Below are positions 6,320 to 26,429 of a stretch of DNA of 64,000 nt, piece by piece. The stretch lies in sequence record OP745617, one strand, 5' to 3'. This DNA comes from Escherichia phage F13. The notes under the pieces are model-generated. The model had not been told where the DNA came from, searched no databases, and saw only the letters and a program-made list of their open reading frames with translations. Numbering within the stretch: the stretch's first letter is position 1; each line of letters starts with the position of its first letter. Both the position numbers and the translations under genes were made by a program.

Positions 6320-6690
6320 CATTTGATACGCCTAAAATACGGTTAAAAATTAAGCGTATCATGGCTGCAGGCCGCGCCGTTCCTGGATTCCTCTTTTCCA
6401 AATTGGTACACCCTTACGTCATGATACGTCATGGTTTTTTATCCGTATCAGTGTACAACCCTTGCCGCGCCTGGCTTGTACATTAATCTTACGGATGATA
6501 CGGATAAAACTGAGCATCGTTATATATAGAATTCGAAAAATTAATTAACTCCATTTTAAAAACATTTATATTAATTTTTTTCATATCCTCATACTTATGT
6601 TAATTTATATATTTAACGTATCATCCGTAAGATATAAGTAAAAACAAAGACTTGCGGCAATACGGATGATACGTCATGATACGCTTCAAC
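6320..6690. repeat. iteron-like module: direct and inverted ATCCGTATC / GATACGGAT 9-mers flanking an AT-rich core (copy 1)
   Basis: Repeats read directly (tatccgtatca, ttacggatgatacggat, cgtatcatccgtaag, tacggatgatacgtcatgatacg); AT-rich core 6530-6615; homologous module at 22845-23135. Confidence 0.7.
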
Positions 6691-12507: not shown

Positions 12508-14817
12508 TTATTTTGCTGATTTCAGCGCGGCTATCTCTGCCTTGAGTTCACCTATCTGATCCATGAGTGCAAGAATAGCCTCGTGGTGCAATGCCGCTGC
12601 CACTCCGTAAGTGTCGACTGATTTGACATCCTTGACCACGGTCCCATCAGCCAGTTCCATATCACCTGAAACAGAAACGGCTTCTGGGAAATCAACCTCA
12701 ACATCTTGAGCCACGAATCCAAAACCTACTTTCGCGCCGTCAGTTTTCAATCGCCATGACACGCCATTAATCCTTTTCATCTTGGTCAATGGGTCTTGAA
12801 TCTTGACAATCTCATCCTTGATTCTGACGTCTGAAGAAGTACCCCAACCGCCAGCGCAAACAGCATTACCTGCTTGCAGGAATTGGAAATACTTGTTGGT
12901 GCCTACACCGCCAGCAGTAGTGGTCATTATGGTCACATCGCCATTACGCTCAGAATATACCCGACCATACGTTGCTGTGTTGGCACTGTTCTTAAAATCG
13001 ATGAACGATTGGTTGTTGGTGTTTCCAATGAACGTCGCTTGACCGCCGCGAGTTATCAACTGGCCTTTTGCATCAACGTTCCCAGAGCTGGTGATCAAGT
13101 TATTTGGCACAAGCAAGTTGCCGTTGTCGACAAAATCGAATGCCTGGCTGGCGGCAGTCGTCAAATTGGTAACGGTCAATCGCATGTAATAAGCGCCACC
13201 GATAACAGCGCGAATGCGCATGCGACCTTCAGCCTCAACAGCAGTCCCCACTCGATACTCCGACATGACGCTGCCGCCGTCAGCGGTCGTGCCTGGACCT
13301 GGCATTGCCGTATCGCCGTTTATAACAGACCATTGCGTATTCGCCGCTGTGAATCCACCGGATGCACGAATCACCCAAACGCCTGAAAAGTTGCGCGGCA
13401 ATACTTCATCTGTTGCAAGGTTGTTACGACCGTAAGCTGGGCTTGAGTTAGAAGCTCTTAGCGCAACGCTTCCCAAAGAGTTCGCACCAGAACTTAAAAG
13501 CGAAACACCTCTTACATATCGCGGAATGGTGAATCCTTCTCCATTGATGAATGCGCCGCCAGCACCTGCGACAACCGTTCCTGATGCTGGTTCACTTGCA
13601 GGGCCGGACCCGTGGAAGTTGATGTTGCCAGTGATGTTTGGCAGGAAGGATTCCATTATCATTCCGTCATTTGACGAGTTGCCGCCATCGCCACGGGCAA
13701 AAAGTGCACGAACACTTCCTGTCTGAACGCCGTTACGGTCTGGAACACGGAATGTTGTTGTTCCGTTGCCTAAAGAATACTTTCCGCGCTTCAGCGGGTC
13801 AGCCAACCAATCTGCATCAGCAATAGGCGTAAGCATTTGCGCATAAGCCCAAAGCTCAGGCCAGTCTGCACGGTTAAGCAATTGTCCGTCGGCAACAACT
13901 TCATACGACTGAATATAGGCGCGACTGTCGCGCAGGTGAAAGTCACCAACGCCATAGTTCATTACGCCGTTCATGCTTGGGCCAACGGTGCCAGTATTTA
14001 CTAAGTTCTCAACCCAACGCTTCGTCGCGGCATCATAATCATTGACGGGGTCGCCAGCCAGTGGTGTTGAGCCTTGTGGACGAATATTCAACCATGCTTG
14101 CGCATTGTCTGCTGATCCTGTGCCGCCCATGGAAGTTGGAACGATGCTCTGATCAGCAACAGGGCCAAATCCAAAGGCATCTTTCATTCCCTGAATAGTC
14201 GTTTGACCTGTGCCGCCGTTTGCAATTGGAATTGTGCTTTGTGAACTATAAATTTGCGCCCAAGGCGACCATGAAGATGTTTCAGCATTGTACCTTCTTT
14301 GGTACAAGTTATTTGAGTTGAATGTGGTGTATCTTTGAATGCAACTTTCCAAAGATATGGCAGTCTGCAGGACTTCCAATATCCCAGCTTCCAAGGCTAC
14401 TGGATAGTTGAGGGATGTCTGCGCAGCAGCATTTGAATATTGGTAATATTGCCCAAACCAAGTTCCAGTCAAAGAGTTCAGATTTATCCCCGACGGCAAA
14501 AGTCCAAAATTCCTGACAGTATTGGTCAAAGATGCGGCAGTTGTTCGAATGGAAAGCATGTCGCCTGCCGCCCATGCGCGCGCTGCAGTTCCTTCCTGTG
14601 CACGCTGCACAGTCAGGACGTTCCCAACCACGGCTGTTACAGTGATGATTTCAAATTGGAGGCCTGTTGCAGCGTCGACGATTGTCGCCACTACACGCTC
14701 GTTTGCACCCAAGGTCGGAAAGCCCGACCCTGAGCGGATTGTGATTGTGGTGTCTGAAGTCGTCGCTGGCTGAGCGAGCGCGACCTCAAAGTTGTTTTTG
14801 AATATTAGCCTTGGCAT
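12508..14817 (-). CDS. tail fiber or tailspike with C-terminal intramolecular chaperone (peptidase S74-like) domain
   Basis: 769 aa; C-terminus SSDVRIKDEI...GVSWRLK...GFVAQDV...LKAEIAALK is typical of the self-cleaving chaperone domain of fibers and endosialidases. Confidence 0.8.
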   Translation of the reverse strand: MPRLIFKNNFEVALAQPATTSDTTITIRSGSGFPTLGANERVVATIVDAATGLQFEIITVTAVVGNVLTVQRAQEGTAARAWAAGDMLSIRTTAASLTNTVRNFGLLPSGINLNSLTGTWFGQYYQYSNAAAQTSLNYPVALEAGILEVLQTAISLESCIQRYTTFNSNNLYQRRYNAETSSWSPWAQIYSSQSTIPIANGGTGQTTIQGMKDAFGFGPVADQSIVPTSMGGTGSADNAQAWLNIRPQGSTPLAGDPVNDYDAATKRWVENLVNTGTVGPSMNGVMNYGVGDFHLRDSRAYIQSYEVVADGQLLNRADWPELWAYAQMLTPIADADWLADPLKRGKYSLGNGTTTFRVPDRNGVQTGSVRALFARGDGGNSSNDGMIMESFLPNITGNINFHGSGPASEPASGTVVAGAGGAFINGEGFTIPRYVRGVSLLSSGANSLGSVALRASNSSPAYGRNNLATDEVLPRNFSGVWVIRASGGFTAANTQWSVINGDTAMPGPGTTADGGSVMSEYRVGTAVEAEGRMRIRAVIGGAYYMRLTVTNLTTAASQAFDFVDNGNLLVPNNLITSSGNVDAKGQLITRGGQATFIGNTNNQSFIDFKNSANTATYGRVYSERNGDVTIMTTTAGGVGTNKYFQFLQAGNAVCAGGWGTSSDVRIKDEIVKIQDPLTKMKRINGVSWRLKTDGAKVGFGFVAQDVEVDFPEAVSVSGDMELADGTVVKDVKSVDTYGVAAALHHEAILALMDQIGELKAEIAALKSAK

Positions 14818-16232: not shown

Positions 16233-17693
16233 ATGAATAAAATATTAACACATAATTGGAAATTCATGTACCAGTTGAATCCTGCTTTAAAAGAAGTCTG
16301 GAAGACAAAAGCGCGATACAAAGTAATATACGGCGGTCGTGCATCTTCCAAATCGCACGATGCCGCTGGTTTTGCTATTTATTTGGCGGCAAACTTCAAA
16401 TTAAAATTCCTTTGCGTTCGACAATTCCAGAACAAAATTTCTGAATCTGTATATACTCTATTAAAAGACAAAATAGAGATTTCTGATTTCAAAGATGAGT
16501 TCAATTTATTAAAGAACTCTATTGAACATAAAAGAACTAAATCTGAATTTCTATTTTACGGTATCGCACGTAACGTTGATGAAATTAAATCAACAGAAGG
16601 TGTTGACGTCCTTTGGCTGGAAGAAGCGCACGCGCTTACTGAAGAACAGTGGGACATTATTGAGCCGACAATCCGTAAAGAAGGGTCCGAAATATGGATC
16701 ATCTTTAACCCCGATGAAGAGGCCGATTTTGTCTACCAAAACTTTGTTATGCGACCGCCGAAGAATGCCATTGTTAAAAAGATAAACTGGCAAGACAATC
16801 CATTTTTGTCGCAAACGATGCTGGACGTTATTGCAGGCATGTACGAGCGCGACCCGAAAAAGGCAGAGCACGTTTATGGCGGCGTGCCGAAGACTGGCGG
16901 CGATAAATCTGTAATCAACCGCGCATTCGTTAAGGCCGCGCTTAATCTCCACAAACACCCTACGCTGGGATGGAGTTTGTCAGGGTCTAACCGTATAGGC
17001 TTTGACGTAGCGGACGATGGCGACGACCTTAACGCCACTGCATTCGTTACAGGAAACGTATTGCGCGGCATCAAGACATGGGAAGGTCTGGAAGATGAAT
17101 TGTTAAAATCGGCAAGCGGAGTTTGGAAAGATGCGCTTACATTTGGCGCTTCTATAACTTATGACGCCATCGGTGTCGGCGCTTTTGCTGGTTCAAAATT
17201 TGATGAACTGAACGAGTATGCAATACATGAAAATCCATCATTTCCAAGAATCGAATTTAATGCGTTCAATGCGCAAGGGTCTGTTGATGATCCTGATGAC
17301 GTTTTTCTTGAATTACCACACGTTGAAATACTCAATAAAGACCATTTCGCAAACATAAAAGCGCAAAAGTGGACTGAAATTGCAGAGAGATTCAGAAAGA
17401 CATACGAATATGCAACTGGGCAAGCCGTATATCCGACTGATGAGTTGATTTCAATCGACACCGATGGCATACCAGAACTTGGAATTCCAGCTTGGACTAC
17501 TGAAGAGATTGAGACGTTTCTTTTTGAGATGTCAGCGCCGCGCAAAGATACGTCTGTTCTTGGCAAGTTCAAAGTTGAATCTAAAAAGGATATGGCAAAG
17601 CGTGGAGTCAAATCACCTAACAAAGCGGACGCGGCAATCATGGCATTAATGAAACCAATCGTTGCAGCATCCGGCTTCTTCTCTAACCTTTAA
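16233..17693 (+). CDS. terminase large subunit
   Basis: 486 aa; N-terminal ATPase motif KVIYGGRASSKSHDAAGF; position upstream of portal. Confidence 0.85.
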   Translation: MNKILTHNWKFMYQLNPALKEVWKTKARYKVIYGGRASSKSHDAAGFAIYLAANFKLKFLCVRQFQNKISESVYTLLKDKIEISDFKDEFNLLKNSIEHKRTKSEFLFYGIARNVDEIKSTEGVDVLWLEEAHALTEEQWDIIEPTIRKEGSEIWIIFNPDEEADFVYQNFVMRPPKNAIVKKINWQDNPFLSQTMLDVIAGMYERDPKKAEHVYGGVPKTGGDKSVINRAFVKAALNLHKHPTLGWSLSGSNRIGFDVADDGDDLNATAFVTGNVLRGIKTWEGLEDELLKSASGVWKDALTFGASITYDAIGVGAFAGSKFDELNEYAIHENPSFPRIEFNAFNAQGSVDDPDDVFLELPHVEILNKDHFANIKAQKWTEIAERFRKTYEYATGQAVYPTDELISIDTDGIPELGIPAWTTEEIETFLFEMSAPRKDTSVLGKFKVESKKDMAKRGVKSPNKADAAIMALMKPIVAASGFFSNL

Positions 17694-18349: not shown

Positions 18350-18511
18350 TTCAATCTCCTTTCGTTTGGTTAACTAAAATATAACTCAAAATGATACAAA
18401 AGCAAAATATTTTATGAACTATTTATGATTACTATACATATCATTTGCTTACAAACACATGAATATTTATAATATAGATTGATTCCCTTTCACTGTCAGG
18501 TGGCGTTAACA

Positions 18512-20887
18512 ATGAAAATTCTTGGCATAAAACTCTGGGAGAAGACGCGACCAGAAGCCGAACCAGCGGAGATGCCGCCAGGCGACCCATTGGCACCGTT
18601 TGAACGCCTTGAAAGGCGCGGCAGCGGTCAACGCTGGGAAAAGACTGAAAGCAATCGACCGACCTTTAAAACGGTTGATGACTTCCCTTTATATGAGCCT
18701 GATATTAACGGGGACGGTGTTGCAATCATCAAAGGTCGCTCAGTAGATTCAGCAACCGTATCCAAAAAAGTTATGGATAATGCCTTAAAGAACATCAGTT
18801 CAGAAGGGCAGGTGAATCCATACACAGTGCCTATTCAGTTGCAAAACTGGTACTTATCGCAATCATTTATCGGATATCAAGCTTGCGCCATCATCGCGCA
18901 GCACTGGCTAGTGAACAAGGCTTGTTCCATGGTAGGCCGCGATGCGGTCCGTAAAGGCTGGGAAGTCAAATCCAGTTCTGAGTCGGAATTGTCAGTACAG
19001 GCCAGCGAACGCTTAAAGCAAATTGATAAAGAATTTAACATCAAAGAGCACTTAGTTGAAGCCGAACGATTCAAGAATATTTTTGGCATCCGCGTCATCA
19101 TATTTGATGTGCGCAGTGATGACCCAGAATATTATAGCAAACCTTTTAACATCGATGGTGTGACAAAAGGGTCTTATAAGGGAATCATTCAGGTTGACCC
19201 TTATTGGATGATGCCATTCTTGACGTCTGAAAACACTGCAGACCCTGCGTCACAGCATTTCTATGATCCAGAATACTGGGTGATCAGCGGACAGCGTTAT
19301 CATCGCAGCCACCTAATCATCTTGCGCAACGATGAGCCAGCTGATATTCTCAAGCCGACTTATATCTACGGCGGCATTCCTCTGACTCAGCAGATTTATG
19401 AACGTATCTATGCCGCTGAACGTACCGCTAACGAAGCGCCATTGCTGGCGATGTCTAAGCGTACAACCACGCTTCGGACCGACGTTGACAAGGCGATTGC
19501 CAATGAGCGGTCGTTTGCCGAACGTCTGATGATGTGGATTAAGTACCGCGACAACTATGCAGTCAAAGTGCTTGGTCAGAAAGAAGAGATGGACCAGTTC
19601 GACATCAACTTGTCAGACTTCGACAGCATCATCATGAACCAGTACCAGCTGGTGGCCGCAATCGCAAAAGTTCCGTCGACAAAACTGTTAGGGACGTCAC
19701 CTAAAGGCTTTAACGCCACTGGTGAGTTCGAAATGGTCAGCTATCACGAAGAATTGGAGACTTGTCAACAGCACGATTTGACGAAGATTCTTGACCGCCA
19801 CTATAAAATCCTTTTGAAGTCTGAAGGCGTGGAAGTCGACGTTAAAGTGGCATGGGAGCCAGTTGGTTCACTTACTGCTACTCAGCTTGCAGAGATTAAC
19901 GACAAACGAGCGAATACTGGCAAGACTCTCATTGATGCTGGCGTAATCTCCCCTGATGAAGAGCGCGACCGCATCAAGGACGACAAAAACAGCGGCTACA
20001 ACCGTTTGCCGGAAGATGCAGCAGAAGAAACCCCAGGGATGTCTCCAGAGAATATGGCACTGCTTGGCAAGTCTGCTGGTGAAGTTCTGCAAGGCAAGGC
20101 CGATATTGAACAGGCCAAAGCTGATGTTGTCAAGATGGGCGGCCAGTTCTATAGCGAGACTGGTATTATGCCGGAAGGTGCCGCGCGTGGTGAGTTGGCG
20201 GAAAACCCTGACAGGGCACCAGTTGAGATTAACATGGATGATACCGATGACGAATCAAGCCATCACGTTGATGTCCTAACGCAACTGAAAGAAGGTCTGG
20301 AGGGTATTGCTGACTATTACCTTAAAGAAGGTCAGGACGTGGATTTTGACCCTCAAAAAGATGCAAGGTCGGTGCAACCGTCTACGCTTCCAAGCGTAAA
20401 AGGAAATGTCGTGAACTTGCGACACAATGTAGGGAAGATGGATGCTGCATCGCTGCCTAAGATGAAGTTGCACGGGATGATTCTTGGTATTGAGAATCCT
20501 CGCAACAGCATTCGCAGGGGTAACAGCCTTGATGGTGAATGGGCAGTTAAGATGCCGCACCATTACGGATTTATCAAAGGCACCAAGGGCGCTGATGGTG
20601 ATGAAGTCGACTGCTTTGTTGGACCAAACATGAAGTCGCCTAAAGTATTCATCATTAACCAAAATGATAATTATTCTGGCGAATTTGATGAACACAAGTG
20701 TATGCTTGGATTTGATTCAGCAGAAGAAGCGAAAGAAGCTTATCAGGCGTCATTTGGTAACGGTTGGAACGGATTTGACTCAATCCACGAATTGGATGTA
20801 AACTCATTCAAGGAGTGGTTGAAGGGTGATTGCTCTCAAGCATATGGAGCACTCAACAATCCTACTAATTCACCGAAGCAAGGTTGA
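18512..20887 (+). CDS. portal protein with C-terminal inorganic-pyrophosphatase-like domain
   Basis: 791 aa from ATG 18512; synteny terminase-portal-head morphogenesis; C-terminus YGFIKGTKGADGDEVDCFVGP matches the family I PPase signature and context. Confidence 0.65.
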   Translation: MKILGIKLWEKTRPEAEPAEMPPGDPLAPFERLERRGSGQRWEKTESNRPTFKTVDDFPLYEPDINGDGVAIIKGRSVDSATVSKKVMDNALKNISSEGQVNPYTVPIQLQNWYLSQSFIGYQACAIIAQHWLVNKACSMVGRDAVRKGWEVKSSSESELSVQASERLKQIDKEFNIKEHLVEAERFKNIFGIRVIIFDVRSDDPEYYSKPFNIDGVTKGSYKGIIQVDPYWMMPFLTSENTADPASQHFYDPEYWVISGQRYHRSHLIILRNDEPADILKPTYIYGGIPLTQQIYERIYAAERTANEAPLLAMSKRTTTLRTDVDKAIANERSFAERLMMWIKYRDNYAVKVLGQKEEMDQFDINLSDFDSIIMNQYQLVAAIAKVPSTKLLGTSPKGFNATGEFEMVSYHEELETCQQHDLTKILDRHYKILLKSEGVEVDVKVAWEPVGSLTATQLAEINDKRANTGKTLIDAGVISPDEERDRIKDDKNSGYNRLPEDAAEETPGMSPENMALLGKSAGEVLQGKADIEQAKADVVKMGGQFYSETGIMPEGAARGELAENPDRAPVEINMDDTDDESSHHVDVLTQLKEGLEGIADYYLKEGQDVDFDPQKDARSVQPSTLPSVKGNVVNLRHNVGKMDAASLPKMKLHGMILGIENPRNSIRRGNSLDGEWAVKMPHHYGFIKGTKGADGDEVDCFVGPNMKSPKVFIINQNDNYSGEFDEHKCMLGFDSAEEAKEAYQASFGNGWNGFDSIHELDVNSFKEWLKGDCSQAYGALNNPTNSPKQG

Positions 20888-20888
20888 T

Positions 20889-21740
20889 ATGGCTTTTAAA
20901 GCTTCGAAAAAACGTGAACGCCGCTCACCCGATAGAATCGGGCGCGGCAGTCCGATAATCCCATCCAACGCAATCGCGATGGCCTATCGTCGTGAGATGA
21001 AAGGTCTTTGCTATGCGATGATTGACGACTATCAAGAAGGAATTGCTGAGTGGCTTGAAAAGAAGCAGGTGAAAAAATTCTTTGCGCAAGACTCTGCTGA
21101 TTCAACTTTTCAAACCTTGATGAAGCGACTGCAACTGAAATGGGCAAAAGCTTTCGCCCGTGTCGGGTCAAAGATTGCCGCAGATTTCATCAAGTCAGTT
21201 GAAAAGGGTGCCACTTCTGCTACATTTGCAAGTCTTAAATCTGCAGGAATAGAAGCGCCAAAAGCCACATATAATAAATTCGTTGAGAACACTCTTAAAA
21301 CAAGCGAGACGTTCAACACGACTTTAGTGACTAAGGTTGGCGAGGATATTCACAACAGGGTGTACGAAGCGGTGATGCTTTCGCTGACTTCGCCAGACCC
21401 AGCGCAACAAGGCACGTCCGGTATTCAGGCGGCATTAAGGAATGTAAAACACTTCTCTGCAAAGCGCGTAGACCTTATTGCAAAAGACCAAACGAGCAAA
21501 CTTTATTGCGTATTAAGTGATGAAAGGATGCGACAGAATGGAGTCGAGGAATTTGAGTGGGCGCATTCAGGAGCAGGCAAAGAGCCGCGAATATCGCATG
21601 AGCATGTCGATGGAATGAGATTCAAGCTTGATGACAAACGCTTATGGGAAGTAGGTGGAGAACTTAAGTTCAAAAAGGGTGACATCGGTCCTCCTGGATG
21701 GGCGATACACTGCAAGTGCAGGAAAATACCAATTATCTGA
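20889..21740 (+). CDS. head morphogenesis protein (SPP1 gp7 / Mu F-like)
   Basis: Position after portal; C-terminal HEHVDG...WAIHCKCRK motif. Confidence 0.7.
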   Translation: MAFKASKKRERRSPDRIGRGSPIIPSNAIAMAYRREMKGLCYAMIDDYQEGIAEWLEKKQVKKFFAQDSADSTFQTLMKRLQLKWAKAFARVGSKIAADFIKSVEKGATSATFASLKSAGIEAPKATYNKFVENTLKTSETFNTTLVTKVGEDIHNRVYEAVMLSLTSPDPAQQGTSGIQAALRNVKHFSAKRVDLIAKDQTSKLYCVLSDERMRQNGVEEFEWAHSGAGKEPRISHEHVDGMRFKLDDKRLWEVGGELKFKKGDIGPPGWAIHCKCRKIPII

Positions 21741-21747
21741 GGTCATT

Positions 21748-22668
21748 ATGACGATACCAATCAACACATTCCCTCTATCTGGACAAACTCCAGTCTTGCC
21801 TGCGGTGTATGCTAATGGCTTGGCAATTGTCTCAGAATTCACTTCTGATAAAAACTTGATTGTTCCACTGAGCCCGCCGCTTTCATCAGGGTATAACTCA
21901 GTAGGCCAGTTCTTTATGATTGGCAATGATGGCGATTCGACCAGCAAGCCTAATCTGACATTGTCTGTACCTAAGATGAACATCACCGACGTTCAAACTG
22001 GCTTGACTGCATCAACAATCACCATTGCTTTTGGAGAAGCAGTGATTATAGGAATGGAGTCTGGAGGGTCCAAGAATGCTGTCGCCGTTAAGGTAGTCAA
22101 ATCCAGCGACAACCAATACACTTTACCAGCTGCGACGGCTTCCGTTCTCGGCGGCGTCAAAATAGGAAGCGGAATAAGCGTCGCAGGTGACGGTACAATT
22201 AGCGTAACTCAATACTCATTGCCGATTGCGTCAGCATCTACTTTAGGCGGCGTAAAGGTCGGTACAACTCTATCAATTGATGGTTCCGGTGTGCTTAACG
22301 CAGCAGCAAGCACCGTCCAGAATGCCACGAACAGTGTTAGCAATCCTCCAACCACTTTGGTTAATCTGGCAACCTTAAACCTTCCTGCAGGAAAGTGGCT
22401 TGTGACGGCAAGCCAATTGACCGTTGCAACTGCAGGCATTCAAGCGAATACCGGAATCACTGTAAAATTATCAACAAGCAATTCAGATATTACGGATGAT
22501 GCATTTACCATGTCAGCGGGTATTCGGGCTTCAGGACGTTTTGGCGGTAACGTCCCAACAAAAATGATTACTCTTGCCGCGCCTGGTAATGTGTATCTAA
22601 ACTATCAGTGCACCGATGCGTTAACATCTACCGTTTACGGACAGATCACCGCAATTAAGCTGAACTAA
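21748..22668 (+). CDS. structural protein with internal tandem repeats (fiber or decoration-like)
   Basis: Repeats TLPAATASVLGGVKIGSGISVAGDGTISV / SLPIASASTLGGVKVGTTLSIDGSGVLNA; start at internal ATG 21748. Confidence 0.5.
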   Translation: MTIPINTFPLSGQTPVLPAVYANGLAIVSEFTSDKNLIVPLSPPLSSGYNSVGQFFMIGNDGDSTSKPNLTLSVPKMNITDVQTGLTASTITIAFGEAVIIGMESGGSKNAVAVKVVKSSDNQYTLPAATASVLGGVKIGSGISVAGDGTISVTQYSLPIASASTLGGVKVGTTLSIDGSGVLNAAASTVQNATNSVSNPPTTLVNLATLNLPAGKWLVTASQLTVATAGIQANTGITVKLSTSNSDITDDAFTMSAGIRASGRFGGNVPTKMITLAAPGNVYLNYQCTDALTSTVYGQITAIKLN

Positions 22669-22678
22669 AGAGGAAGTT

Positions 22679-22816
22679 ATGCAAAAGATTATTCAGTCAC
22701 GTTATGTTAAAGTGCGAAATATTAATTGCAACTCTTTGCTTTCTTGGAAATGGGCTGTTTATGACTCGATGTTGATTGGCGTTTTAGTGGCAGGAGTGCT
22801 ATTTAATATTCACTGA
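22679..22816 (+). CDS. possible small hydrophobic protein (45 aa)
   Basis: Short ORF with GAGGAAG RBS and hydrophobic C-terminus; not in the supplied ORF track (below its length cutoff). Confidence 0.25.
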   Translation: MQKIIQSRYVKVRNINCNSLLSWKWAVYDSMLIGVLVAGVLFNIH

Positions 22817-22844
22817 ATTCATCGGCAAAGGATTGCCGCGAGTT

Positions 22845-23135
22845 TTATACGTATAATGACGTATCATCCGTATCAAGTAAGTTGTTGTTTTCAAAAGAAT
22901 CTTACGGATGATACGGATGATACGCGTTGCCGCCGTACTATATAGGAATTCAAATAAATTAATTTAAAATTATATATCTAATTTAATTTTATTTTTTTAT
23001 AAACTCTTATATATATGAAAAGTATCCGTATCATCCGTATCATCCGTAGCACACCAGTGATAGCGCGGCTTATACACCGATACGGATAAAAATACGCCTC
23101 ATTTTATCCGTATCATCCGTATCACACTAATAAAG
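22845..23135. repeat. iteron-like module (copy 2): GATACGGAT / ATCCGTATC 9-mer arrays flanking an AT-rich core
   Basis: ttacggatgatacggatgatacg (22901-22923), gtatccgtatcatccgtatcatccgta (23021-23047), tatccgtatcatccgtatc (23105-23123); shares the 21-mer aatcttacggatgatacggat with copy 1. Confidence 0.7.
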
Positions 23136-23239
23136 GCGCGGCTATATCGGTTGTTATACATATTCAAACCATAATTATTGTTTGCCTAAGTTTTTTTCAT
23201 TAGATATAATACACAATACTTATTTGAGGGTGGATGCGA

Positions 23240-24655
23240 ATGCAAACGGCACGCGAAATTGACAAAAATGGATTCTTGACGATTATGGGTTGTCCGATTT
23301 CGTCATTTGGCATTTTTGATTATTCTGCTGGTCAAGTTGGTCTTGATGGTGATCCGAATCGCATCGTAAAAGTCTATCGCCCTGAGTCAGCGGTGAAAGA
23401 CCCCGAAGCGATAGATTCATTCAAAAATATCCCTTTCATCGACAATCACGAAATGCTTTCTGGATTTGAAGGTGATGAGGATAACACAGCACCCGAAGAG
23501 TATGGCGTTGATGGCGTTCTGACTGGCAATGTTTATTATGACAAGCCATGGATGCGCGGCGACCTTAAAGTGTTTAGCCGTCGTCTGAAGAAGGCCATTG
23601 ATTCTGGAAAGGTTGACTTGTCTTTGGGCTATGACTGTGAATTCATCATACAGTCTGGAGAGTTTGACGGGCAGCCGTATGAAGTGGTGCAGACAACTCT
23701 TCGCGGCAACCACATTGCTCTCGTGGACGTTGGTCGAGTACCAGGTGCACGGGTGCTGGATGGTCGTTGCTTTGACCATCTTTGTTTGACGACTGTAACA
23801 CCATCCAACGAGGATTTAGACATGCCAAAACCGTTAAAAGGTAAAGCGCGTGATAATGCTGTTGAACAGCTGAAATCACTGATCCCTGCGCTCGAACAAT
23901 TTCTGAACGAAGAGAGTACTGAAGCTGCTCATCAGGACGAAGTTGAAGTGAAAGCAGAAGAGAAGGACTCAACCGAAAATCGTGAAGAAGTAATGGTTGA
24001 TCCAGAAGTCAAGGCAGAAGCAGAAGAAACCCCAGAAGGTGAAGAGAAGTTTGAAGTTGAAACTGAATCTCACGCTGGCGGCGAACTTCCGCAATTGATC
24101 AGCCAAATCGAAGCACTTATTGCAAAACTGAAAGGTGGCGCGGTAGGTGATGAAGAAGAAGTTGAAGCCGAAGTCAAAGACGAAGAAGAAGTTGAAGTCA
24201 AGGCTGAAGATGTATCACCTTGCGACAAAGCTGAAGATGTGGTTAGCGGCCTGCAAAACAGCAACGTAAAGGGGGCTTCGGTCGAAAAAGATGACAAACC
24301 GACAAAAGCGGCGAAAGCGTCGCCAGGTCCAGCAAAAGGGGAACACTCAATGGCATCTGATTCAGCAGTTGCTGCTTTCTACGCTGATTCTGCTCGTAAG
24401 AATAGCCTCTACCAGCGCCTGTCTAAAGTTGTTGGTGCCTTTGATCATGCAACTATGGACTCCAAGTCCGTAGCGAAATATGGCGCTAAAAAGTTAGGCT
24501 TGAAGTGCGTTGATGGTGCTGAGTTTGACGTGGTGGATAATTATCTGCGCGGCGTTGAGCACGGTCAGAAACAGCGTGTAGTCGCAAAACAAAAGGCCGC
24601 TGCGGATTCTGCAGCAACTGACGAAGCATTTGAAGCTTGGTTGAAAGGGGAATAA
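23240..24655 (+). CDS. scaffolding / prohead protease-like protein with acidic region
   Basis: Position between head morphogenesis and capsid; long Glu-rich stretch (EVEVKAEEKD...EEEVEAEVKDEEEVEVKAED). Confidence 0.5.
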   Translation: MQTAREIDKNGFLTIMGCPISSFGIFDYSAGQVGLDGDPNRIVKVYRPESAVKDPEAIDSFKNIPFIDNHEMLSGFEGDEDNTAPEEYGVDGVLTGNVYYDKPWMRGDLKVFSRRLKKAIDSGKVDLSLGYDCEFIIQSGEFDGQPYEVVQTTLRGNHIALVDVGRVPGARVLDGRCFDHLCLTTVTPSNEDLDMPKPLKGKARDNAVEQLKSLIPALEQFLNEESTEAAHQDEVEVKAEEKDSTENREEVMVDPEVKAEAEETPEGEEKFEVETESHAGGELPQLISQIEALIAKLKGGAVGDEEEVEAEVKDEEEVEVKAEDVSPCDKAEDVVSGLQNSNVKGASVEKDDKPTKAAKASPGPAKGEHSMASDSAVAAFYADSARKNSLYQRLSKVVGAFDHATMDSKSVAKYGAKKLGLKCVDGAEFDVVDNYLRGVEHGQKQRVVAKQKAAADSAATDEAFEAWLKGE

Positions 24656-24657
24656 AC

Positions 24658-25275
24658 ATGACTTTCCAAACTAGTGTAGGCCGTCAATATACAACTGGCT
24701 TTCCTGGCGACATCGTTCGCGACGGCCCACAGCGTGGGAAGCCAGGCCGAATCGTTAGCGCCAACGACGGTGCAAACGTAAACGCCATCAGCCGTGTGTT
24801 TGGTTTTAAGGCTGACGTGTCATTAATGGGTACTGGCCAGACCAAAACCTTGGGCGCGCAGGACTTTGAAGTTGAACTGGGCGGCACCAATTACTATGGC
24901 ATCCTTGGCAACAGCAAGCGTTACGCTCTGTATGGCAACTCTACTGGTCCTTTGGGTGCCAGCATGGTTCTGCCTCAATATAGCGAAGGCGAGTTCTACG
25001 ATATGTGCACGGGCCTCGTAGTTGAAGTGTTCAACCCAAGCACCAGTCCGCAGACGCTGAACTACGGCGACCTGCTCGCTTATGTACCTAAAGGCATTTC
25101 CAGCGGTAACAACCCGAACAACTTGCCTATCGGTGCAATTATCGCCTATACTGGCTCACTGCCAACTGGCATGGTTGCCATTCCAGGCGGTATCGTGATT
25201 GACCCGACTGCTATTGCCCTTTCCGGCCCAAGCGTCCAGTCTTCCACTTATACCATTGTACAATTGACTCGTTAA
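24658..25275 (+). CDS. head-associated structural protein (205 aa)
   Basis: ATG after AAAGGGG RBS; Gly/Ser-rich; immediately upstream of capsid. Confidence 0.45.
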   Translation: MTFQTSVGRQYTTGFPGDIVRDGPQRGKPGRIVSANDGANVNAISRVFGFKADVSLMGTGQTKTLGAQDFEVELGGTNYYGILGNSKRYALYGNSTGPLGASMVLPQYSEGEFYDMCTGLVVEVFNPSTSPQTLNYGDLLAYVPKGISSGNNPNNLPIGAIIAYTGSLPTGMVAIPGGIVIDPTAIALSGPSVQSSTYTIVQLTR

Positions 25276-25289
25276 TAGGCAGGTGAATA

Positions 25290-26429
25290 ATGACTCGCAT
25301 TAGCCAAACACACTCTCGCCTCCCAGCGAGCAAGGTGCGCCCTTTTGATATGCAATCTGTTACCGACGCGGCTGTTTCCCAGCTTGCTCGTATCGGTATT
25401 GTGTTTGATTCCGCGATTGTGCGTGATCAGATTGAGCACTTAAACCGTGCAGGCGCTTTCCGCGTAGGTGACGCCGCGTTCACTGCACCGCAGACTACTC
25501 CGTCAATCCCGACCCCGCTGCAGTTCCTGCAGCAGTGGCTGCCTGGCTTCGTCAAAATCATGACCGCTGCTCGTAAAATCGACGAGCTGGTTGGTATTGA
25601 TACCGTTGGTCAGTGGGAAGATGCAGAAATCGTTCAGGGTATCGTTGAACCAGCTGGCACCGCAGTTGAATATGGTGATTTCACCTCTATTCCTCTGGCA
25701 AGCTGGAACGTAAACTTTGAACGTCGTTCTATCGTTCGTGGCGAAATGGGCATGGCAGTTGGTATGCTGGAAGAAGGCCGCGCGTCTGCTATGCGTCTGA
25801 ACTCCGCAGAAACCAAGCGCCAGCAGGCTGCTGTATCTCTGGAAATCATGCGTAACGCAATCGGCTTCTATGGCTGGTACAACGGGAACAACCGCACATT
25901 CGGCTTCCTGAATGATCCAAACCTGCCAGCGGCGATGACTTCCAACACCACTTCCGGCTGGGCTACTGCGACTTTCCAACAGGTAACTGCAGACATCCGT
26001 TTGATGGTTCGTCAAATTCGTGTGAACTCTCAGGACCAGATTGATCCAGAGAAAGTTGACATGACTCTGGCGCTGCCGACTAACTCTATCGATTGGCTGT
26101 CCAACACCACTGACTTCGGTATTTCTGTACGTGACTGGATCACCCAGACCTATCCGAAGATGAAGATCAAATCTGCACCGGAACTCAACGGCGCACTTGG
26201 CAGTGACCCGACTTTCTTGAACGTGGCATACCTGTACGCTGATCACATCGATTCCTCAATCGATGGTTCAAGCGATGATGGTTCCGTATTCAGTCAGCTG
26301 GTTCAAACCAAGTTCATGACTCTGGGCGTTGAAAAGCGTGCTAAGAGCTACGTTGAAGACTACGCAAACGCAACAGCAGGCGTTCTGCTCAAGCGTCCGT
26401 TCGCAGTCGTCCGTATGACTGGCATTTAA
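25290..26429 (+). CDS. major capsid protein
   Basis: 379 aa; position after scaffold; codon usage typical of a highly expressed gene. Confidence 0.65.

Follow-up and report, generated by a model that had tools for sequence, protein, structure and literature searches.

Gene and Domain Architecture

The analyzed DNA (the window) is a stretch of 64,000 nucleotides of Escherichia phage F13 (sequence record OP745617), in which the plus-strand open reading frame (ORF) at 21748–22668, located among the head-assembly genes, encodes a fiber-like virion protein. The coordinates given for it in a first-pass annotation were exact: the ORF and its translation form a complete coding sequence (CDS) for a protein of 306 aa and 30.88 kDa, with an ATG start codon at 21748 and a stop codon at 22666–22668. 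Three parts were distinguished in the protein, namely an N-terminal all-beta domain, which is a putative virion anchor (21748–22116, plus strand; aa 1–123), a segment of tandem repeats, and a C-terminal beta jelly-roll of the TNF/C1q-like type, which is a putative distal knob (22309–22665, plus strand; aa 188–306, 119 residues). The obtained results indicated that the protein is very probably exposed on the virion as a fiber-like component; that it is an accessory fiber or spike decorating the head has a probability of roughly one half.

The first-pass annotation had described tandem repeats of about 29 aa. Such repeats are real, and both strings that it quoted are present in the protein; however, the period is 32 aa, and there are two copies only. 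Repeat 1 (22117–22212, plus strand; aa 124–155, YTLPAATASVLGGVKIGSGISVAGDGTISVTQ) and repeat 2 (22213–22308, plus strand; aa 156–187, YSLPIASASTLGGVKVGTTLSIDGSGVLNAAA) follow each other head to tail and are identical in 15 of 32 residues and 52 of 96 nucleotides. The best ungapped 30-aa self-match of the protein had a BLOSUM62 score of 91, against 30.6 ± 4.9 (maximum 53) in 500 shuffles, and self-comparison revealed no third copy. With at least two tandem copies and a likeness above chance, these repeats belong to the LGGVK type, the consensus of which is YxLPxA(T/S)xxxLGGVKxG...DGxxSV. When 122 fetched proteins were scanned with the pattern, 400 segments of 32 aa matched, 337 of them distinct; the consensus and profile were built from 45 repeats. 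In the AlphaFold2 (AF2) monomer model, the repeat region was unstructured and uninformative (predicted local distance difference test, pLDDT, of about 30); the segment probably folds only as a trimer or oligomer.

A match to the Pfam family of the phi29 head fiber, PF11133, was obtained with 28.4 bits (cut-off 24.6), aa 108–147 aligning onto profile positions 213–252 of 277. As judged from the sequences, membership of the protein in this family is at the level of the motif only (about 20–40 residues). When the profile of 45 repeats was compared with the PDB, only three sequences were found at E < 0.01, all of them from head fibers: full-length gp8.5 of phi29, its crystallized fiber fragment, and the head-fiber chain of crAss001. 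Thus, every solved protein that bears the motif is a trimeric head fiber. In sequence databases, the LGGVK motif gave 944 matches at E ≤ 0.001 among 8,000 candidates scored, and the proteins bearing it contained up to eight repeats.

The AF2 model of residues 1–127, built on six sequences, was all-beta with about 10 strands (mean pLDDT 85; predicted template modeling score, pTM, 0.79). Among the best 50 of 121 PDB fold matches of this domain, the first was the capsid spike of Pa223 (9ny6_C; E 4e-4, template modeling (TM) score 0.52, 107 columns, 10% identity), followed by the baseplate-cup protein of Klebsiella phage KP1 (E 1e-3) and an Acinetobacter (Solidus) tailspike (5e-3); T4 gp9 (1qex) and gp10 (2fl8) (E 0.026–0.052) and the N-terminus of CBA120 TSP4 (0.07) matched more weakly. 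None of the phi29 gp8.5 entries (6QVK, 6QYD, and 6QYY) was among these 50, and the 50 listed matches of the full-length model did not include the Pa223 entry 9ny6. Neither of the two AF2 models contained a helix of four or more residues.

When 1.84 billion proteins were searched exhaustively by HMMER with the N-terminal domain, the only true relatives obtained were the orthologs described below and the protein P0070, which belong to PB1-like phages wherever the context was read. The hits P0121 and P0122 from this search were rejected as spurious, being translated eukaryote-like satellite repeats. The exhaustive HMMER search and a local phmmer search replaced domain searches of an index of 5.8 billion proteins, which returned zero for the N-terminal and C-terminal domains alone despite the existence of full-length orthologs; this reflects the retrieval limit of a word index and is not evidence. 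A tblastn search of the whole window with the protein as query found only the protein itself, the N-terminal domain being shared with no other window protein, and no match to PF07880 was observed at E ≤ 0.1.

The C-terminal domain formed a jelly-roll in the full-length AF2 model, with a pLDDT of about 55–75. Its Foldseek matches included the N-domain of the lectin BC2L-C (TM score 0.57–0.59, normalized to that domain), ExsFA, Pgp3, the tip of lambda gpJ, and a cyanophage fiber CBD; viral C1q-domain, collagen-like, and tail-fiber proteins also matched by fold, and a gp9+10 fusion was among the viral fold matches of the model. No sequence-level match to the Pfam C1q/TNF families was found in the protein. 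The modeled fold suggests that the knob is trimeric and possibly glycan-binding. At the sequence level, both the anchor and the knob domains are orphans.

Presence in Virions

The first-pass annotation had proposed a structural protein and virion proteomics as the check, non-detection counting against the proposal. Orthologs of the protein have in fact been detected in two sister phages, vB_Eco4M-7 and ECML-117, whose virions were purified in CsCl gradients and analyzed by liquid chromatography–tandem mass spectrometry (Necel et al., PMC7048862). The ortholog vB_Eco4M-7_38, which occupies the same slot (306 aa, 30.9 kDa, 96.4% identical), had a score of 3354 and 72.9% coverage, with 8 peptides and 775 peptide-spectrum matches (PSMs), and the 30.8-kDa ortholog gp36 of ECML-117 was detected as well (PMC7048862). 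The vB_Eco4M-7 peptides lay in the N-terminal domain (36–76), the repeats (139–170), the junction (171–216), and the C-terminal domain (217–240 and 273–304), and a tryptic peptide across repeats 1 and 2 alone accounted for 109 PSMs (PMC7048862). Since peptides came from all three domains up to residue 304, the intact protein is present in vB_Eco4M-7 virions.

By top-3 peak area, the protein was second of the seven vB_Eco4M-7 proteins compared (3.6e10), the cement protein being first (1.1e11), and its PSMs per residue (2.5) were close to those of the 779-aa tail fiber (2.6). Abundance in these data was nevertheless rejected as a means of discriminating between capsid and tail proteins, because it is non-quantitative: the capsid and sheath proteins were lowest, and the PSM density equaled that of the tail fiber. 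Two further observations were made in the same dataset. The major capsid protein (535 copies) had the lowest top-3 area of the seven, 4.4e8, despite its expected top abundance, and the DUF2213 protease/scaffold was among the strongest signals, which suggests that mature particles retain this protein, whole or as a fragment. The vB_Eco4M-7 list also includes a helicase, a glyoxalase, and a TolA-like protein, which are clearly non-structural; the preparation was thus imperfectly clean (PMC7048862).

Distribution and Evolution

Apart from Wifcevirus, only three metagenomic phages of a like type were found to have full-length relatives. Wifcevirus comprises myoviruses of about 68–72 kb that are distantly related to the Pseudomonas phages of Pbunavirus (PB1, E217). 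The CDS was 100% identical to that in OP352608.1 (vB_EcoM_SP13), as was the window region 20800–23300; 27 other Wifcevirus records, including WFC, WFH, ECML-117, FEC19, vB_Eco4M-7, and BASEL Bas98–101, were 90–98% identical in this region. At the protein level, the identity over the full length was 95–98% across these 27 records, the hosts of which include O157, K-12/O16, and Shigella, and the C-terminal domain was 93–97% identical to those of ECML-117 and Bas99. In the comparison with ECML-117, the protein was 96.4% identical, whereas the DNA was 85.3% and the third codon positions only 61% identical; therefore, the gene is under purifying selection and is a true coding sequence. Minus-strand ORFs overlap it at 21642–21986, 21993–22160, and 22209–22439, and the third-position divergence favors coding on the plus strand.

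More distant orthologs were found in the identical gene slot wherever the context was readable. Their lengths were 311 aa with two repeats (P0004), 340 aa with three (P0002), and 367 aa with about four (P0003), the extra repeats of P0002 (one) and P0003 (about two) being inserted between conserved end domains. A variable repeat number between conserved ends is a hallmark of a shaft. In addition, P0070 (L010:8285–8833), from another PB1-like phage, is a 182-aa protein with the N-terminal domain and two repeats, and its gene is located immediately upstream of terL. As P0070 has no knob and a different gene position, the anchor and shaft appear to move as a module within PB1-like phages independently of the knob.

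The rate of change and the history of the domains also differed. The protein was 57% identical to its ortholog in the metagenomic phage L005, compared with 90% for the capsid protein and 81% for the cement protein, so that the gene evolves faster than its neighbors between lineages. When the region 22309–22665 of the window was compared with L004:8001–9023 and L005:8001–8936, the C-terminal domain was 68% identical to that of the more distant L004 (capsid protein 76%) and 53% identical to that of the closer L005 (capsid protein 90%), whereas the N-terminal domain showed the opposite (41% with L004 and 58% with L005). The domains thus have different histories, and the values suggest that the knob was exchanged between lineages.

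No fiber gene was found in the corresponding slot of Pbunavirus SN, Myosmarvirus TropicalSun, Xanthomonas phage Carpasina (Carpasinavirus), or Aeromonas phage Gekk3-15; three of the four have short ORFs only, and in Gekk3-15 the slot also holds a “putative protease” of 197 aa. The absence of the gene from these relatives, together with the fiberless capsid of E217, marks it as a lineage-specific accessory insertion.

The orthologs are already present in GenBank under inconsistent names, namely “head fiber” (WFH, CWP003), “tail fiber” (Bas98–101), “tail connector” (EC150, AV128), or “hypothetical.” These names are probably outputs of annotation pipelines that mirror the ambiguity of the motif.

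Genomic Setting

The neighboring genes were assigned using Pfam and PHROG. The gene is preceded by that of the Mu-F-like head-morphogenesis protein (20889–21740; PF04233, phrog_324) and followed downstream by that of the DUF2213 “head maturation protease”/scaffold (23234–24655; phrog_3778), in agreement with the first-pass placement between head-morphogenesis and scaffold genes. Further upstream are the gene for the large terminase subunit, terL (16233–17693; assigned from the homologous gene in related records and loci), and the portal gene (18479–20887, plus strand; PF06381 and PF18823). The C-terminal part of the portal product (aa 660–782) is an InPase domain (PF18823, E 4e-46), and L004, L005, and L010, which are metagenomic relatives, show the same fusion. 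Downstream of the protease gene follow those of an E217-gp24-type cement protein (24637–25275; PF22758) and the major capsid protein (25290–26429). Scans of the locus with Rfam, PADLOC, and NCBIfam gave nothing significant.

A GAGG ribosome-binding site was read directly in the sequence at 21739–21742 (plus strand), overlapping the TGA stop of the Mu-F-like gene, from which the fiber gene is separated by 7 nt. A 45-aa ORF (22679–22816, plus strand) follows, the same-position ortholog of which in vB_Eco4M-7 is annotated as a transmembrane protein; in Pbunavirus SN and Myosmarvirus, the slot holds small ORFs of similar length. Right after it lies a terminator-like hairpin with a T-run (22823–22848, plus strand), and a sigma-70-like promoter match (10/12) was found at 23182–23210 (plus strand), just upstream of the protease gene; both are consensus matches only, and such matches were no more numerous in the window than in shuffles. 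Given the gap of 7 nt that separates the gene from the Mu-F-like gene and the terminator-like hairpin behind the 45-aa ORF, its co-transcription with the portal and Mu-F-like genes is probable. This arrangement suggests that the portal, Mu-F-like, and fiber genes and the protease, cement, and capsid genes may form separate transcription units.

The 417-nt non-coding stretch between the 45-aa ORF and the protease gene contains an iteron-like array (22859–23124), in which a 9-bp unit, ATCCGTATC/CGTATCATC, is present in about 10 copies, in both orientations, around a core of about 80 bp (22940–23020) that is very rich in AT. The 14-mer CCGTATCATCCGTA (at most one mismatch) was counted nine times in the window, where 0.01 occurrences would be expected, and is confined to two intergenic clusters (22859–23124 and 6441–6674). 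A phage regulator acting at late promoters could use these repeats as operators; alternatively, they may form an origin-like element.

The phage also encodes a 769-aa fiber with a C-terminal Peptidase_S74 intramolecular chaperone (12508–14817, minus strand), upstream of terL and well away from the tail module. This fiber probably corresponds to the variable “T-shaped” tail fiber of the BASEL paper and to the top mass-spectrometry hit in vB_Eco4M-7. Its first 100 or so residues resemble the tail-fiber N-termini of Ralstonia, Burkholderia Bcep22-like, and other phages, and its N-terminal part is 75–83% identical among the Wifcevirus relatives. No Pbunavirus match to its N-terminal 250 aa was found among 40 of 320 matching records listed (a spread sample). 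According to the BASEL authors, the receptor-binding domains of the T-shaped fiber vary widely; they count two tail fibers, the protein described here not being among them, and assign the baseplate anchor to the T-shaped fiber itself (PMC11990801).

Comparison With Known Fiber Proteins

The first-pass annotation had called the protein fiber-like. Its anchor/repeat/knob architecture, the variable repeat number of its orthologs, the motif homology with phi29 gp8.5 and crAss001 gp21, and the TNF/C1q-like C-terminal domain bear this out. The phi29 gp8.5 (PF11133; PDB 3QC7, 6QVK/6QYD) is a dispensable protein with a presumed role in attachment. It carries the motif YxLPAATxxxLGGVKxG at residues 232–248; in a direct BLASTP comparison, only this segment, YSLPAATTTTLGGVKKG, aligned with each repeat, and repeat 1 matched gp8.5 residues 232–252. 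Both proteins are small (280 and 306 aa), begin with an all-beta anchor of about 110–120 residues that is followed by a fibrous part, and are encoded in the head module. However, in gp8.5 the motif occurs once, close to the C-terminus, in contrast to the two tandem 32-aa copies in the middle of the F13 protein. Moreover, the stem of gp8.5 is a helix-turn-helix supercoil, whereas the F13 protein has no predicted helices, does not align to gp8.5 residues 117–200, and ends in a TNF/C1q-like knob that gp8.5 lacks.

The same motif, as YVLPAATTSTIGGVKK, is present in gp21, the head fiber of crAss001 (PDB 7QOF), a presumed accessory binder. This protein is a trimer set in a planar hexon pocket of a capsid with triangulation number T=9, which is also that of the E217-type capsid; the C-terminal domain of gp21 shares homology with residues 226–280 of gp8.5. 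In contrast to the F13 protein, gp21 has only 97 aa, plugs the hexon pocket with a 38-residue N-terminal peptide, and lacks the beta-sandwich anchor, the tandem repeats, and the jelly-roll knob.

The gp52 of the Pseudomonas phage Pa223 (Bruynoghevirus; PDB 9NY6) is of similar size (about 295 aa), and its C-terminal TNF-fold knob may correspond to the knob predicted for the F13 protein from a model with pLDDT 55–75. That protein is a homotrimer, located at the icosahedral 3-folds and proposed to aid adsorption; it is built of an N-terminal arm, a body formed by a triple beta-helix, and the knob. It has no detectable sequence similarity to the F13 protein and no LGGVK repeats, and it attaches by a 41-residue N-terminal arm at the 3-folds of a T=7 podovirus.

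The baseplate trimers T4 gp9/gp10 and the N-terminal modules of CBA120 TSP4 resemble the N-terminal domain weakly in fold (E 0.03–0.07). A link to T4 gp9/gp10 is also given by PF07880, which co-occurs with LGGVK repeats in several database homologs, and T4 gp9 likewise pairs a beta-sandwich with a C-terminal jelly-roll. Unlike them, the F13 protein has no PF07880 match and no N-terminal coiled coil, and its gene is located outside the baseplate cluster. The fold predicted for the C-terminal 119 residues matches TNF/C1q-like trimeric domains, such as the N-domain of Burkholderia BC2L-C, Bacillus ExsFA, and viral C1q fiber tips.

The features of a receptor-binding tail fiber were not observed: the gene lies outside the tail and baseplate genes, the anchor is unshared with other window proteins, and the distal domain is near-invariant. 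The first-pass annotation had also offered a decoration protein. In the strict sense of a cement protein such as E217 gp24, this does not hold, since that role is already filled by the neighboring gene product (24637–25275), to which the PF22758 match belongs. In E217, the T=9 capsid consists of 535 capsid subunits and 180 cement trimers and is fiberless. Taken together, these features place the protein as a new, uncharacterized member in a known class of modular trimeric phage fibers, probably as a head fiber; its relatives are in GenBank, some labeled “head fiber,” and the virion proteomics is published.

Location on the Virion

The best explanation of these data, at about even odds, is an accessory virion fiber or spike that is confined, within the PB1/E217 group of myoviruses, to the Wifcevirus-like members. 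Docking on the capsid is favored because the gene is positioned in the head operon, the solved motif-bearing proteins are all head fibers, and the best fold match of the anchor is a capsid spike. The head fiber proposed by the first-pass annotation thus gained support on these three points, the location itself remaining an inference. Several results weigh against it. PF11133 aligned over only 40 of 277 positions, and the protein showed no similarity to the capsid-binding two-beta-barrel base of gp8.5 (residues 1–110) or to its stem, either by BLASTP or among the best 50 of 121 folds. The fold matches of the N-terminal domain that follow the first are to baseplate or tailspike proteins, and the model of the C-terminal domain is of moderate confidence. 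The mass spectrometry gives no copy number, with the major capsid and sheath proteins grossly under-represented. Furthermore, the motif co-occurs with PF07880 (T4 gp9/gp10), PF13884 (fiber chaperone), and other tail-fiber domains and is present in annotated tail fibers of phiRSL1 and Erwinia phages. Among related repeat proteins, the gene of P0042 ends a tail module, and those of P0009 and P0081 adjoin giant tail-type proteins, whereas that of P0014 is located between capsid and adaptor genes on an unrelated podovirus-like contig; the contexts of P0063 and P0055 were uninformative. Since the neighborhoods are mixed, the repeat alone is no predictor of location, and the name of PF11133, as these sequences are distributed, labels a motif and not a location. 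Finally, one fiber gene of the phage, at 12508–14817 on the minus strand, already lies outside the tail module.

Much of this evidence would also suit a protein of the tail or baseplate, either a short accessory side fiber or a T4-gp9-like trimeric socket coupling the T-shaped fiber to an E217-type baseplate. The KP1, Solidus, T4, and CBA120 fold matches of the anchor and the gp9+10 fusion among the viral matches point in this direction, as do the many repeat-bearing homologs with PF07880 or PF13884 or in tail-fiber positions, the GenBank names “tail fiber protein” (Bas98–101) and “tail connector protein” (EC150, AV128), and a PSM density equal to that of the T-shaped fiber. Moreover, given that the N-terminus of the T-shaped fiber had no Pbunavirus match in the records listed, both proteins may be Wifcevirus-specific additions, and a gene position outside the tail module has a precedent in the T-shaped fiber gene. 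However, the gene stands in the portal/Mu-F-like string away from the baseplate genes, PF07880 was not matched even at E 0.1, the gp9/gp10 fold matches are weaker than that of the capsid spike, and the anchor recurs in no other window protein. The near-invariant conservation is unlike that of receptor-binding proteins, the BASEL paper gives the T-shaped fiber its own baseplate anchor and counts two fibers only, and the loci of the distant orthologs have no large fiber gene upstream of terL within the flanks fetched. We therefore consider a tail or baseplate location possible but unlikely.

A fibritin-like whisker of the neck or collar near the portal and connector would agree with the adjoining portal and Mu-F-like genes, the predicted trimeric fiber architecture, and the two records that name a tail connector. 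Such a whisker is, nevertheless, very improbable: the model is all-beta and without a coiled coil or foldon-like element, and the E217 neck (portal, head-to-tail adaptor, collar, and gateway) has no whiskers. The Wifcevirus-like loci that were read carry homologs of E217 gp27, gp28, and gp29, which are expected to include neck components, and positive support for a neck location was absent. Slightly less remote, although still improbable, is that the protein forms no surface fiber and is a co-purifying assembly factor, an internal protein, or a moron unrelated to the virion. The non-structural proteins in the vB_Eco4M-7 list and the variability of the slot behind the Mu-F-like gene among relatives are compatible with this, but it is opposed by the very high coverage and PSM number in one phage and the detection in a second. 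Architecture and variable repeat number are typical of exposed fibers, no PADLOC or NCBIfam matches were found, and purifying selection on the gene is strong.

Proposed Role and Significance

As an accessory head fiber, the protein would be a homotrimer held together by the repeats and the TNF-like knob, since TNF/C1q-like knobs and all solved motif-bearing proteins are trimers. Its N-terminal domain may dock on the T=9 capsid at the trimeric beta-tulip cement protein or at hexon centers; these sites are candidates because the cement trimer offers a 3-fold site and the crAss001 fiber uses hexon pockets at the same T number. The short shaft would keep the knob a few nanometers above the shell, where weak and reversible binding of the knob to a conserved surface ligand (probably a glycan) could raise the rate of encounter with cells, as proposed for phi29 gp8.5, crAss001 gp21/gp29, and Pa223 gp52. 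The high conservation of the protein speaks for a conserved ligand and reversible pre-adsorption rather than strain-specific recognition. A role as a host-range determinant is unlikely, because identity is 95–98% across hosts, the T-shaped fiber varies strongly, and the BASEL authors count two fibers only.

Tentatively, the Wifcevirus-like phages may be the first PB1/E217-type myoviruses with head fibers. These would be lectin-like trimers attached by a new N-terminal capsid anchor to the cement protein or hexon pockets, with a conserved glycan of the envelope or mucosa as ligand, and encoded by a module inserted into the head operon, the shaft of which is tuned by two to four repeats. The gain is modest, a further example of modular head or accessory fibers with a new anchor domain; in addition, inconsistent names for such proteins spread via automated annotation. 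Wifcevirus phages are candidate agents against O157 E. coli in biocontrol, and phages of the related Pbunavirus are in wide therapeutic use. A surface fiber that is abundant and highly conserved would matter in these phages, since it would be an obvious immunogen and a convenient display scaffold and might influence adsorption kinetics or retention on mucus or lipopolysaccharide.

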